Sequence record: MT968995.1
Origin: Escherichia phage vB_EcoM_WL-3
DNA: 64,000 nucleotides
Reading direction: 5' to 3' (one strand)
The number at the start of each line of letters is the position of its first letter. The stretch's first letter is position 1. Position numbers and translations under genes: made by a program. Shown one piece after another: positions 4,984 to 61,686 of this stretch. The notes under the pieces were generated by a model that made no database searches, was not told where the DNA came from, and saw only the letters and a list, made by a program, of their open reading frames with translations.

Positions 4984-5160
4984 TTACCCTTTAAGTAAGT
5001 CGTAAAATCCACCATTCACATGCTTAGGAGCAGAAGGCCGACGAGTAGACAAACGATGACATTTAGGGCAAACATCATTTTCTCGTTCAGAAATCTTTTT
5101 AATTTTTTCATATTCATGCCCGCAATCTTCGGATTGGCATTTATAATCATACATTGGCAT
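4984..5160 (-). CDS. FmdB-like zinc-ribbon protein (58 aa)
   Basis: hand-translated MPMYDYKCQSEDCGHEYEKIKKISERENDVCPKCHRL...; CxxC...CPxC pattern; fills the gap between flanking genes; missed by the 60-aa track cutoff. Confidence 0.5.
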   Translation of the reverse strand: MPMYDYKCQSEDCGHEYEKIKKISERENDVCPKCHRLSTRRPSAPKHVNGGFYDLLKG

Positions 5161-5162
5161 AA

Positions 5163-5582
5163 TTATTCCTTAAAGTGTGCTTTCAACATCTGATACAAGG
5201 ACCATGCTTGTTCATTATTTTCAATAGTAACTTTCATTACCGGGAATTCTGTGAAATCTTCTATTTGTTCTTGCTCTTCCTGCTCTTGTTCTTCGGCTGC
5301 CTGGTATGGATTTTCCACTTCATCAAAGAACCCAGCTTCGTTAGTAGAGAGCCAGATAAAGTTTTCGTCAAGGATATCAGCGCCGGCACAACGTTTGAGT
5401 ACACCTGTGGATGTCACAATTTTAGTAGGACGCCCAAGATAATCAGCATCTAAAATTTTAAAAGGTTCCATACCTAAACGTCGTGCATAGATTCCGTTAT
5501 CAGTATGGTCTTTAATAAAATTTTCTTGAGCTTGTTTATTTTTAAATTGATACCATTTATTAACTTCAAATTTAATAGCCAT
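5163..5582 (-). CDS. hypothetical protein with acidic [10 protein letters not shown] tract (possibly goF-like)
   Basis: 139-aa ORF at the position and size expected for T4 goF; sequence identity not verifiable from memory. Confidence 0.45.
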
Positions 5583-5797
5583 TAATAAATTTCCTTCCAG
5601 TAAGTTGTGCCATCCTCAGTAATTTCACGAAATACACCGTAAATTGGTTGTTTATCACCAACCTTTTCATACACATAAACCGAAGTCAAGTGAGTAAACT
5701 TAACGGTATGTTCTTTTTGAACTACTACCAAATCTGGATCGAATAATACATCTTCAAATTCGTCATTAGTGCAGTTCTGAACAATTTTACGTTTCAT
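5582..5797 (-). CDS. hypothetical protein (71 aa; possibly cef-like)
   Basis: size and position match T4 cef; ATGA overlap with the upstream gene. Confidence 0.4.
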
Positions 5798-5810
5798 TAC
5801 AATTTCCTCA

Positions 5811-6092
5811 TTAATTGAACAGTGGAGCGATGCGTTTCAGAAGAGTAGCAGCACCTTTGGCAAATTTTACATCATGAAAAACAGTTTCTTCTTCCGTTAC
5901 AACACGAACTTTAATGTTTTCACAATCCCAATTTTTACGAACAATCTTCAAAAGCTGCAGTAAATCTTTACATTCTGCAATATCGATAACACATCCACGA
6001 GAATCTTCCATTATCGCACGATAACCATAAGCCATACCATAATCGTTGAAAGATTGTTCGATGATAATTAAGTTTTCCATTTTATTCTCCAA
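5811..6092 (-). CDS. hypothetical protein (93 aa)
   Basis: ORF in track with consistent strand and packing. Confidence 0.45.
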   Translation of the reverse strand: MENKMENLIIIEQSFNDYGMAYGYRAIMEDSRGCVIDIAECKDLLQLLKIVRKNWDCENIKVRVVTEEETVFHDVKFAKGAATLLKRIAPLFN

Positions 6093-59120: not shown

Positions 59121-59298
59121 CTAAACGAATAGGTTCATGAATGCCATATCCCTGAACAGAAATTTCTGTCGTAGGATAAATTCCACTAATATCACCCATA
59201 TTCCACGCTTCATTAAATTGCTGTTCGCCTGAATTACTAAACCATTCTGCGAAAGCATTTAGCACATCTTCAGAACCTTCAATAATTATCTTTGCCAT
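59077..59298 (-). CDS. hypothetical protein (vs.5 position)
   Basis: 73-aa ORF. Confidence 0.4.
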   Translation of the reverse strand: MAKIIIEGSEDVLNAFAEWFSNSGEQQFNEAWNMGDISGIYPTTEISVQGYGIHEPIRLVEYDLCTGEEVKYD

Positions 59299-59672
59299 TA
59301 CAAACTCTCAGTAAAGGTACGAGCGATAACGTCGCGCTGCTGTTCCGGAGTCAGAGAGTTAAAGCGAACTGCATAACCGGATACACGGATGGTCAGCTGC
59401 GGATATTTTTCCGGATGCTTAACTGCATCTTCCAGAGTTTCACGACGCAGAACGTTAACGTTCAGGTGTTGACCACCTTCAATTTTAACTGTAGGTTGTG
59501 TTTCAATTTCAATTTCACGGGCATGCAAACCATAGAAAATTTCTGGGTCTACAAAAGAGTCCTCTTTAAAAGTTTTAGAAACAATAATTCGTGCTTGAAT
59601 ACCATCTTCAAAATAAATAGTACCTTTATGTGTGCCTTCAAGAATTTGATATGCTTTCATATAACCTCTCAA
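59298..59672 (-). CDS. autonomous glycyl radical cofactor-like protein (GrcA/YfiD-like)
   Basis: 124 aa; C-terminal glycyl radical signature [27 protein letters not shown]. Confidence 0.7.
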
Positions 59673-59998
59673 TTAGAAAATAAATTTATCCAAGATTGCT
59701 CTTTAATTAAAAATGGCTCAGAATCATATGCCATTAAACTTTGGGTAATTAGTCCTTTAAAAGGCCCATCAATAAATTCCATGGTAAAATATGGAATTTT
59801 ATTCATTAATCTTGCATTAGGAGCAGTGCACAAAACTCTGCATCCTCTGAATACGCCTTTTTGTAATTTGTATTGCTTAGGATAAAATTCGCTCAAGGCG
59901 TTGTTATTTGCCAAAATTTCAAAATGATTCACCAATTTATTTTTAATAGTTTTTGGCGAAAAATAAAGATATTCGAAAAGTTGCGTATCTGTCATCAT
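59669..59998 (-). CDS. hypothetical protein (vs.7 position; 109 aa from [10 protein letters not shown])
   Basis: trimmed from track ORF 59669-60049. Confidence 0.4.
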
Positions 59999-60582
59999 TG
60001 CATTCCAATTACGAAAAACTGTGGACGAGTAATACCACCAATGCAACATTTACTATTGCAACAGTGTTGCACAGTTTCAATATGAATATCGTAAATTTTA
60101 TCCATATCAGGAGATTTAACAGGCTCATCGATTATATACAAAATTCGAGAAAGCGATAAACCTCTGAACTTGCTACCTCTATTACCAACAAAACTACGGA
60201 CAGAATCAGTAAATAAGCGGAATCGAATATCATCATTAGAATAACGTGAAAATTCCTTTTTAATGTTATTTGCAGAAATTTTAGCGTAAGCTGAAGTATT
60301 AGAAAGAACAATAACTGTTCCGCCATCATACAACCAATTAGCAGCAAAGTTAGTCACAGCAATTGATTTACCAGATTGACGTCCACCGTCTAGTCGAAGT
60401 GTGCAATACTGTTTAAGCAAGTCTTCAAATGGCAGGATATATTCGTTTTTACAAATTTCTTCTACTCTAGCATCAGAATGGTGTGTAAAAGCATTCATCA
60501 GGGATAGATAAGGACCAGTTAAAAATGTTATCATTTTATTCTCTCTAAATTTGGGCCATTCCATGGCGCATGAATTGTCCAT
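59995..60582 (-). CDS. small P-loop NTPase (vs.8 position)
   Basis: Walker A GGRQSGKS and Walker B-like ILYIIDEP; probable start at the internal Met at 60534. Confidence 0.5.
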   Translation of the reverse strand: MDNSCAMEWPKFRENKMITFLTGPYLSLMNAFTHHSDARVEEICKNEYILPFEDLLKQYCTLRLDGGRQSGKSIAVTNFAANWLYDGGTVIVLSNTSAYAKISANNIKKEFSRYSNDDIRFRLFTDSVRSFVGNRGSKFRGLSLSRILYIIDEPVKSPDMDKIYDIHIETVQHCCNSKCCIGGITRPQFFVIGMQ

Positions 60583-60599
60583 TTCTGTATTTACCCATT

Positions 60600-60675
60600 A
60601 CCGCACTTGGGCTCGACCTTATTACAGGTTGGTGGGAATCCCTCACAGAATCATGAGGTCCAGGTTATTCCCATG
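60600..60675. other. GC-rich structured element between the P-loop gene and denV
   Basis: GGGAAT...ATTCCC outer stem enclosing CCTCA-CAGAATCA-TGAGG; GC content well above the local average; no ORF. Confidence 0.4.
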
Positions 60676-60679
60676 TTAT

Positions 60680-61096
60680 TTAAATGTAAATATTTTTGCC
60701 GTAATACTTATACCAGTGTGGCTTCATTAAAATTTTTTCATCGAGTCGTTGTTGACTCAACTTAATAGCTGATTTGCATGGATTATAATCATTTTTCCAT
60801 TCTACTGGAATATCGCTGATGTCAGGAACTTCAGTATCTTTTATACTGAACCCGCGTTTTAAGCATTCCGTTATAATGTCCGATTGACGCTTTCGCAAAA
60901 ATTCTAACTTATCGTAAAAGAAAGTAACATGACCAGAACCTAAAATAAATTTAGAAGATATTTTAAAATCTTTAACGCGCTTACCGTTTGCCACATGCTT
61001 ACGAACTATACCAAAAACACGCGGCAATTCACGGTATTCTGCGATTAAATGTTGATCAGCAAGTTCAGATACTAAAGTCAAATTAATACGAGTCAT
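60680..61096 (-). CDS. denV: endonuclease V (pyrimidine dimer DNA glycosylase)
   Basis: 138 aa starting [17 protein letters not shown]; matches T4 DenV from recall. Confidence 0.9.
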
Positions 61097-61155
61097 TTTA
61101 TCCCTCCAAGTAACTGTGAATATACTATCACAATTCTAGGAGAAAGTAAATAGCT

Positions 61156-61686
<531 letters not shown>

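Follow-up and report, generated by a model that had tools for sequence, protein, structure and literature searches.

A conserved structured RNA domain before vs.8 of T4-like phages that recurs in unrelated phages of Enterobacterales

Several kinds of RNA element are known from T4 and other phages. T4 has RNA operators for genes 32, 43 and regA, and T4-type phages carry PeSL cassettes, which combine an early promoter with stem-loop repeats and occur in hyperplastic regions in several copies, each with an early sigma-70 promoter. Self-cleaving ribozymes occur beside phage tRNA genes, where GOLLD and ROOL are often found as well. A preprint describes GOLLD and ROOL as large ornate phage RNAs of several hundred nucleotides (nt) that are multimeric (bioRxiv 10.1101/2024.12.08.627333). 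T4 also encodes rnaC and rnaD (species 1 and 2), small stable RNAs beside the tRNA genes whose roles are not established, and a 2010 review knew of no riboswitch or trans-acting regulatory RNA functionally characterised in T4 (both PMC3014915). A phage-encoded two-piece transfer-messenger RNA (tmRNA) is reported as well (PMC9004378). Fremin, Bhatt and Kyrpides (2023) listed 10,006 covarying intergenic csRNA candidates in IMG/VR viral contigs, some of them tRNA-like or located upstream of genes (PMC10690425). Here we describe an element of the Tequatrovirus Escherichia phage vB_EcoM_WL-3 (MT968995.1), of which a stretch of 64,000 nt (the window) was analysed. Positions 60593-60672 on the minus strand, between denV and a homologue of T4 vs.8, form a conserved, non-coding structured RNA domain, the 5' part of which (60600-60675) had been pointed out earlier from the sequence alone (the original prediction). 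The element is strand-specific and covaries around an invariant junction. It is specific to virulent phages infecting Enterobacterales, and unrelated phage families have exchanged it.

T4 is one of the most closely studied phages. The element matches no RNA family of Rfam 15. A search with the 4,227 covariance models of Rfam 15, which the original prediction had suggested, gave no match in the whole window at gathering thresholds and assigned no family to the motif. At E values up to 10, only chance snoRNA-type matches off the motif were obtained in 60400-60800, and nothing was found on the motif-bearing units of loci L022, L085 and L024 nor in eight other loci. ARAGORN predicts 0 tRNA or tmRNA genes in the window, and no Rfam tRNA or tmRNA model matches the motif. 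A resemblance to the RNase P RNA of E. coli (GUGCGGUAAGAGC), and likewise to parts of tmRNA, was discarded, as no model match supports it.

The described systems differ from the element in various respects. In L085, L022 and related contigs the motif holds a position by tRNA genes similar to that of rnaC and rnaD. However, the covariance model of the motif (R1, Infernal) finds nothing in the T4 locus with rnaC, rnaD and the tRNAs (L043), no similarity is seen by eye, and in T4-likes about 6 kb separate the motif, a part of the vs.8 leader, from the tRNA cluster. Short covarying helices round a conserved unpaired junction recall three-way-junction riboswitch aptamers (e.g., the purine class), and the 5'-leader position in T4-likes is shared both with these and with the T4 translational operators (the gene 32 pseudoknot, regA, gene 43); however, no Rfam riboswitch or leader model matches, and the motif also occurs inside tRNA arrays without a gene to regulate. 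Like GOLLD and ROOL, it is a phage-borne structured RNA without established function, often by tRNA genes, but its domain measures about 80 nt, or 110-190 nt with peripheral helices, and gives no match to their Rfam models. A tmRNA-like tag unit stands a few hundred nt away from the motif in KpCHEMY26 and the 46-kb phages, but the motif itself gives no match to tmRNA (ssrA). Unlike the PeSL cassettes, R1 has a single match in the window (60586-60643, 75.2 bits), and no promoter-like site was found next to the motif on the minus strand. The csRNA candidates are the same kind of object from the same data source; the text of that paper mentions neither vs.8 nor the motif sequence, but its catalogue may include the motif. 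No description of the element was found in literature on vs.8, the core sequence, T4 small RNAs and phage RNA motifs, a search that did not cover the 2023 catalogue tables. We regard the element as a family not described before, of a kind already known, the structured small RNAs and leaders encoded by phages.

A structured RNA domain built around a three-way junction

The domain comprises a two-tier hairpin, P0, with a one-sided internal loop, abutting a three-way junction of the helices P1 (3 base pairs, bp), P2 (4 bp closing a hexaloop) and P3 (3 bp, a triloop and a bulge). Some 20 unpaired bases vary hardly or not at all, as in the core …ACCU-GURANA-AGGU-CNA-GCC-NNN-G-N-GC-GGUAA… (coordinates in Table 1). 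Most of what the original prediction had said of the site holds. The element does lie in the intergenic gap between denV and the next gene (60535-60679, 145 nt from the denV stop to the probable vs.8 ATG). The stretch is indeed G+C-rich, with 51.3% in 60600-60675 against 34.4% in the whole window, a value reached by only 0.25% of 76-nt windows. The nested stems are real and belong to the minus strand, where GGGAAU/AUUCCC encloses CCUCAU/GUGAGG. The proposed contrast with simple terminators is also correct, since P0 is followed by ACCAACCUG without a U-tract and a scan of 60300-61300 returned 0 terminator-like sites. The extent of about 75 bp took in a real element only in part, the most conserved part being the three-way junction, which reaches 60593. 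The stems, whose loss in relatives would have spoken against the prediction, are conserved, and the covariation analysis across related phages reveals compensatory changes in all four helices (P0, P1, P2 and P3). Three aspects had gone unseen: the nested stems belong to a larger domain, the rest of which is better conserved, T4 has a coding annotation here, and the element occurs in unrelated phage families.

Pairs were counted in 51 distinct sequences, aligned by a covariance model built from these same sequences, so the counts lean towards the structure: 95.9% of the paired cells are complementary, compared with 86.0±0.9% after shuffling (0 of 500 shuffles reach the observed value) and 20-39% with slid partners, and 39 cells are changed on both sides. 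The MAFFT seed alignment gives 88.1% paired. The two inner pairs of P1 occur as CG in 39 and GC in 11 sequences, and as CG in 35, GC in 8, UA in 6, AU in 1 and GU in 1, with at most 1 sequence unpaired; the outer pair of P2 is A-U in 49 and G-C in 2. P3 shows changes from C-G to U-A and from C-G to G-C, and its variants GCG-CAA-CGC, GCG-CAA-UGC, GCC-CGC-GGC and GUC-CGC-GAC all keep pairing. Variation in the junction region is confined to the triloop and bulge of P3, while G, A, C, A, GG and UAA of the loop and junctions are invariant or nearly so. In the stems, G-U is more frequent than A-C (13 vs. 3), which identifies the folded strand as the minus-strand RNA.

P0 covaries in both T4-like subtypes. 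Among 14 Tequatrovirus variants, the outer helix keeps 5 of 6 pairs and has one A-U to G-C double change, and the inner hairpin shows one C-G to U-A double change, an alternation of U-A with U-G and no broken pair. The outer helix of other T4-likes reads AAAGG/CCUUU, AAAGC/GCUUU or AAAGA/UCUUU; in 32 such non-Tequatrovirus sequences one outer pair is GC in 16, CG in 13 and AU in 1, the inner CUCA/UGAG core persists, and in 4 the two bases of one pair have been lost together. The sequence AACCUGGAC recurs in the P0 loop of Karamvirus-type relatives, and other clades differ in both length and sequence of this loop. Still other lineages have a different P0 at the same place, namely GGGG/CCCC, GAGGG/CCCUC, UGAGG/CCUCA, GGAAC/GUUCC, and GAGUG/CACUC vs. 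GAAUG/CAUUC. RNAalifold on raw mixed-clade MAFFT alignments recovered only P2 or wrong pairing, because the length of P0 varies, and was replaced by clade-wise alignments and explicit pair counts.

Occurrence in T4-like and unrelated phages

A blastn search with a 147-nt query of the gap matched 1,114 phage records, and all genera of enterobacterial T4-likes carry the element. Matches beyond T4-likes (Vequintavirinae, the unclassified 45-kb phage Ivi, and others) comprise only the core of about 45 nt, at 87-97% identity, and pattern scans yielded further members from IMG/VR and metagenomes. No true match emerged from a pattern scan of 185,579 prokaryotic genomes; about 17 bacterial exact-pattern matches (one of them L030) were rejected as chance, since they lie in high-G+C coding regions and have neither the P2 hairpin nor the flanks. 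As a check for host mimicry, 5,426 E. coli genomes were searched by blastn with the core, and no match was found. Eighteen records labelled 'Campylobacter phage' match the motif. One of them, L005 (MG065676, 'Campylobacter phage A116', UNVERIFIED), belongs to Vequintavirinae by its classification, and its sequence around the motif is nearly the same as that of E. coli phage nomo, so the Campylobacter host label is doubtful.

The link to vs.8 was assessed in 35 IMG/VR loci retrieved via the Vs.8 protein alone (33-96% identity). In 34 of the 35, the covariance model places the motif before vs.8 and on its strand; the motif mostly ends 50-110 nt before the ATG, and another gene intervenes in four loci. 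Karamvirus-like phages have two tandem copies upstream of vs.8 (L028 5089-5257, minus strand; L031 9014-9183, plus strand; L082; L102; L113). The second copy is diverged (41-52 bits) and is the source of the compensatory variants GCCU/AGGC in P2 and GUC/GAC and, without the bulge, GCC/GGC in P3. Homologues of vs.8 were found in T4-likes only, with none in 170 kb of motif-bearing non-T4 loci and none in non-T4-like phage records. A shared protein partner was therefore rejected, as no vs.8 homologue accompanies the motif outside T4-likes. A leader-type position upstream of a single gene class is seen within T4-likes; elsewhere the motif stands in tRNA arrays and before unrelated open reading frames (ORFs).

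The orientation of the motif is always that of the neighbouring genes or tRNAs. In L085, a motif unit lies directly between a tRNA gene and a tRNA-like gene. In Vequintavirinae it is found about 600 nt upstream of a tRNA array, and some non-T4-like phages have it upstream of unrelated small ORFs. In phage Ivi the motif is flanked by a promoter-like site and, about 95 nt beyond the core, by a terminator-like GC hairpin with nine U's behind it. The 46-kb phages and KpCHEMY26 (Schitoviridae) contain it in an ORF-free stretch of about 900 nt, in which conserved cores alternate with long hairpins and which adjoins tRNA genes; the closing helix of the unit in these phages shows a compensatory change (GUUGUGAC/GUCACAAC vs. 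GUUGUGAA/UUCACAAC).

Units resembling tmRNA lie 280-470 nt from the motif, on a side that depends on the lineage (L022 5625-5750, minus strand; L024 10995-11130, plus strand; also L025, L029, L054, L072 and L128). Their putative resume codon and tag frame, AUAAAU-GCA…, would encode ANEE(V/M)YLAVA* in the 46-kb phages and ANDDVVLMAA* in KpCHEMY26-type Schitoviridae. These units match Rfam tmRNA_permuted below threshold, at 21.7 and 33.7 bits where the gathering score is 47, and beta_tmRNA in part, and ARAGORN gives no tmRNA for them. No tag-like unit was found in T4-like or Vequintavirinae loci.

Several further observations concern these contexts. In L022 the ORF-free stretch of about 900 nt (5104-5990, minus strand) leads from a sigma-70-like promoter to four tRNA genes, and its conserved cores are split by long imperfect hairpins (e.g., 5236-5322) that resemble RNase III-type processing sites. 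The units of L022 have acceptor-like closing helices in common, which start with GUUGUG, and one unit ends in a T-arm-like hairpin, GCCGG-AGUUCAGCA-CCGGC, beside the closing helix. T-arm-like hairpins (GCGGUUCGAUUCCGC, UUAGGUUCAACUCCUAA) also occur near the tmRNA-like unit of L024. The Vequintavirinae motif is flanked on both sides by the repeat CCCYUAGAGGG(C/A)CUUGA(U/A)AGUGC (L003 2440-2475 and about 2560-2600; flanks of L026 and L065), and other repeat_regions are annotated nearby in phage nomo. Among the tRNAs that ARAGORN predicts in phage tRNA arrays beside the motif are some with four-base anticodons (ctgg, atcc) and a 'tRNA-Pyl' with a CUA anticodon, which is amber-suppressor-like.

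Possible roles of the domain

In our opinion, the element is best read as a phage-specific structured RNA module that binds a conserved factor, being set free as a small stable RNA in some phages and forming part of the vs.8 leader in T4-likes; we put the probability of this reading at roughly 0.55. The junction would serve as a specific, aptamer-like recognition module for a factor common to infections of Enterobacterales, which may be a host or phage protein, an RNA or a small ligand. A nearly invariant core in Straboviridae, Vequintavirinae, a Schitoviridae phage and unclassified phages, with unrelated flanking genes, points to a specific partner common to enteric infections. In Vequintavirinae, Schitoviridae and unclassified phages the module is apparently a discrete small stable RNA, either processed from operons with tRNAs and tmRNA-like units or transcribed alone. 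The small-RNA option offered in the original prediction is favoured by the position of the core in other phages, where it has tRNA genes on both sides or is enclosed by a promoter-like site and a terminator-like hairpin. In the window, neither a promoter nor a terminator lies beside the element, and it is presumably transcribed inside the denV-to-vs.8 message. The module in the vs.8 leader of T4-likes may act in trans after processing, couple binding to the expression of vs.8, or both. Comparison of the sequences suggests a trans-acting, factor-binding stable RNA as the main mode, at a little under even chances.

Several points weigh against the reading as a factor-binding module. The linkage to vs.8 in T4-likes fits a cis-regulatory role equally well. 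The minimum free energy of the element is not below chance, with z-scores against dinucleotide shuffles of -0.02, +0.14 and -0.68 (both strands, two lengths). Thermodynamic stability was therefore dropped as evidence; what lends the stems credibility is their conservation, with compensatory changes, among relatives. Because P2 and P3 hardly vary, the evidence for them comes from a small number of copies that are divergent or duplicated. Some of the aligned sequences were gathered by exact sequence patterns, which biases the alignment towards conserved cores, the set retrieved via Vs.8 being unbiased in this respect.

A wider picture is conceivable, with the odds against it, in which T4 and its relatives carry an unrecognised stable RNA under a mis-extended vs.8. 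This RNA would belong to a family that virulent enterobacterial phages exchange horizontally and that accompanies tRNA genes and tmRNA-like units; the family may act on the machinery of translation or RNA surveillance, or may be a decoy for RNA-targeting host defence. The element ties T4 to little-explored stable-RNA operons of coliphages and Klebsiella phages, which contain tRNAs, tmRNA-like units and other cores, and it offers a defined target of 80 nt for deletion and compensatory mutation in a tractable phage.

The strongest competitor is a purely cis-acting leader of vs.8, i.e., a riboswitch or a protein-binding translational operator whose junction senses a ligand or protein and alters access to the ribosome-binding site of vs.8 some 50-110 nt downstream. 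The constant position of the motif before vs.8 in the protein-anchored loci agrees with such a role, as do the aptamer-like architecture of short covarying stems and an invariant junction, the conserved 3' extension of T4-likes that reaches the Shine-Dalgarno region, the terminator-like hairpin after the core in Ivi and the precedent of the T4 operators of genes 32, 43 and regA. However, the core also occurs without vs.8 or any common downstream gene (between tRNA genes, in RNA operons and before unrelated small ORFs), and the four T4-like loci with an intervening gene do not fit well either. A purely cis-regulatory role thus accounts for the T4-like data only. No Rfam riboswitch matches, and no alternative pairing with covariation that could form an expression platform was found. 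The one long-range candidate, a pseudoknot of the P2 loop with a downstream UUACA, has 99% complementary cells and one compensatory change, but it is not significant, being equalled in 94 of 500 shuffles. By eye, the P0 internal loop is complementary to the downstream hairpin GCC-AAGGAAU-GGC in several clades, not in all. Taken as the whole explanation, the cis-acting leader is unlikely, if still a serious contender.

Compared with the factor-binding module, a self-cleaving ribozyme or another processing element that cuts a polycistronic transcript or releases neighbouring tRNAs and RNAs is quite improbable. It would fit a small junction with many invariant unpaired bases that adjoins tRNA genes and sits in multi-unit RNA operons in several phages, and self-cleaving ribozymes beside phage tRNA genes are known. 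Yet no Rfam model of hammerhead, twister, twister-sister, pistol, hatchet or HDV-like ribozymes, nor any other model, matches at E up to 10, and no conserved candidate cleavage site could be identified. The long hairpins between the units of the 46-kb phages look like substrates of host RNases, so that self-cleavage would be unnecessary.

A DNA-level role and a coding role are both unlikely. For the former, one may think of a recombination junction or mobile-cassette boundary, a site bound by protein as double-stranded DNA, or the remnant of a homing-endonuclease target that the original prediction had considered. The element lies at a mosaic boundary, where the upstream genes differ among T4-likes; it has moved between unrelated phage families, and its G+C content is foreign to the T4-like background. 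However, the stems are kept by compensatory changes and by G-U rather than A-C, a property of one RNA strand; the orientation follows the neighbouring genes and tRNAs, R1 finds a single copy in each genome segment searched, and the invariant bases are the unpaired ones of the junction. A DNA-level function is accordingly very improbable, and the endonuclease-target proposal is not upheld.

That the stretch is coding, either as an N-terminal extension of Vs.8 or as a separate 33-aa peptide, is barely credible, although the T4 reference (NC_000866) annotates a Vs.8 of 219 amino acids (aa; NP_049732) from an ATG inside P0, with the element as its first 40 codons, and a 33-codon ORF, open in this window and annotated as a gene in, e.g., phage a51, covers part of it. 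An 8-bp deletion in the window relative to T4 breaks the T4 frame of vs.8. That frame is open across the motif in 1 of 53 T4-like variants, T4 itself, and closed in the other 52, and over all 74 variants from all phages no frame is open in more than 18. The PHROG 1488 profile (177 positions) aligns from a downstream Met (MITFLTGP), and most of 32 Vs.8 homologues have 172-181 aa and no N-terminal extension. It follows that the stretch is non-coding and that the start of T4 vs.8 is over-extended. In addition, variation falls in loops and bulges rather than in third codon positions, and the core is conserved where tRNA genes flank it in other phages. We are highly confident that the element is a functional structured RNA and not coding, and this corrects the T4 reference annotation of vs.8. 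The claim of the original prediction that the stretch holds no ORF is right in that no frame is conserved, but it overlooked the 33-codon ORF with a GTG start (60545-60646, minus strand), two plus-strand ORFs and the Vs.8 N-terminus annotated in T4. The 33-aa 'hypothetical protein' of phage a51, equivalent to that ORF, is probably spurious. The vs.8 coding sequence of T4 (L001 3254-3913, i.e., NC_000866 64253-64912) appears to extend 40 codons too far, into the RNA domain, and the longest-ORF predictions for relatives (194-196 aa; 59995-60582 in the window) start about 16 codons too early.

Gene neighbourhood and the leader of T4-likes

Table 1. Features of the RNA domain, its flanks and tRNA arrays beside the motif (window positions unless a locus is named)
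Feature	Position	Strand	Remarks
P0 outer helix, 5' strand GGGAAU	60667-60672	minus	pairs with 60634-60639
P0 internal loop, 5' side only, AACCUGGA	60659-60666	minus	read from sequence
P0 inner hairpin CCUCAU-GAUUCU-GUGAGG	60641-60658	minus	CCUCAU 60658-60653, GUGAGG 60646-60641; 100% paired in 14 Tequatrovirus variants
Bulged G (60640) and P0 outer helix, 3' strand AUUCCC (60639-60634)	60634-60640	minus	
P1, 5' strand ACC	60631-60633	minus	pairs with GGU 60593-60595; then linker A at 60630
P2 hairpin ACCU-GUAAUA-AGGU	60616-60629	minus	three pairs invariant; loop G1 and A6 invariant
Junction J2/3 CGA	60613-60615	minus	C and A invariant
P3 mini-hairpin GCC-CAA-G(U)GC	60603-60612	minus	variable triloop and bulge
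Junction J3/1 GGUAAUG	60596-60602	minus	G, G, U, A, A near-invariant
P1, 3' strand GGU	60593-60595	minus	end of conserved domain, outside the stretch first pointed out
3' leader specific to T4-likes	60535-60592	minus	UACAG, AUGGAC, hairpin GCC-AUGGAAU-GGC (60567-60555), Shine-Dalgarno-like GAGAG (60545-60541)
vs.8 homologue (P-loop protein, PHROG 1488)	59995-60534	minus	probable start ATG 60534-60532
denV (endonuclease V)	60680-61096	minus	stop codon 7 nt before P0
e	61156-61650	minus	
Predicted tRNAs with four-base or CUA anticodons	L085 3587-3669; L003 3583-3681; L038 1714-1812; L024 9535-9610		ARAGORN

The region around the element (60400-60800, 401 bases queried) is 99.8% identical to phages ES21, a51 and YUEEL01. 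The minus-strand gene order is e, denV, the P-loop gene homologous to T4 vs.8, vs.7 and the GrcA-like vs.6. Translation of vs.8 likely starts at the ATG listed in Table 1 rather than at the longest-ORF start (60582). The 3' leader is conserved among T4-likes only, and its UACAG is a possible partner of the P2 loop. In KPV15-type Klebsiella phages (L121) a gene of 100 aa (609-911) is inserted between the motif and vs.8. A hairpin GCC-AAGGAAU-GGCCCC precedes both the inserted gene and vs.8 (545-575 and 950-975), as if it had been duplicated or used by the insertion, which suggests that the hairpin is probably part of the gene-start signals and not of the RNA domain. The trinucleotide GGA is present in the loop of the leader hairpin, in the conserved AUGGAC upstream and in the Shine-Dalgarno region, a pattern that resembles CsrA-type binding sites.

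The vs.6 homologue (59298-59672, minus strand) matches the Pfam family Gly_radical (E 2e-18) and is thus a GrcA/YfiD-like autonomous glycyl-radical cofactor, as annotated in T4; with a local G+C content of 55%, it shows that coding DNA, too, can form G+C-rich patches in this genome. Two internal-protein genes that T4 has between denV and e, ipII and ipIII (L001 4357-5503), are missing from the window (61097-61155). In other T4-likes an internal-protein gene, and not denV, is directly upstream of the motif. Since the upstream gene varies in this way, the motif marks the edge of a variable region.

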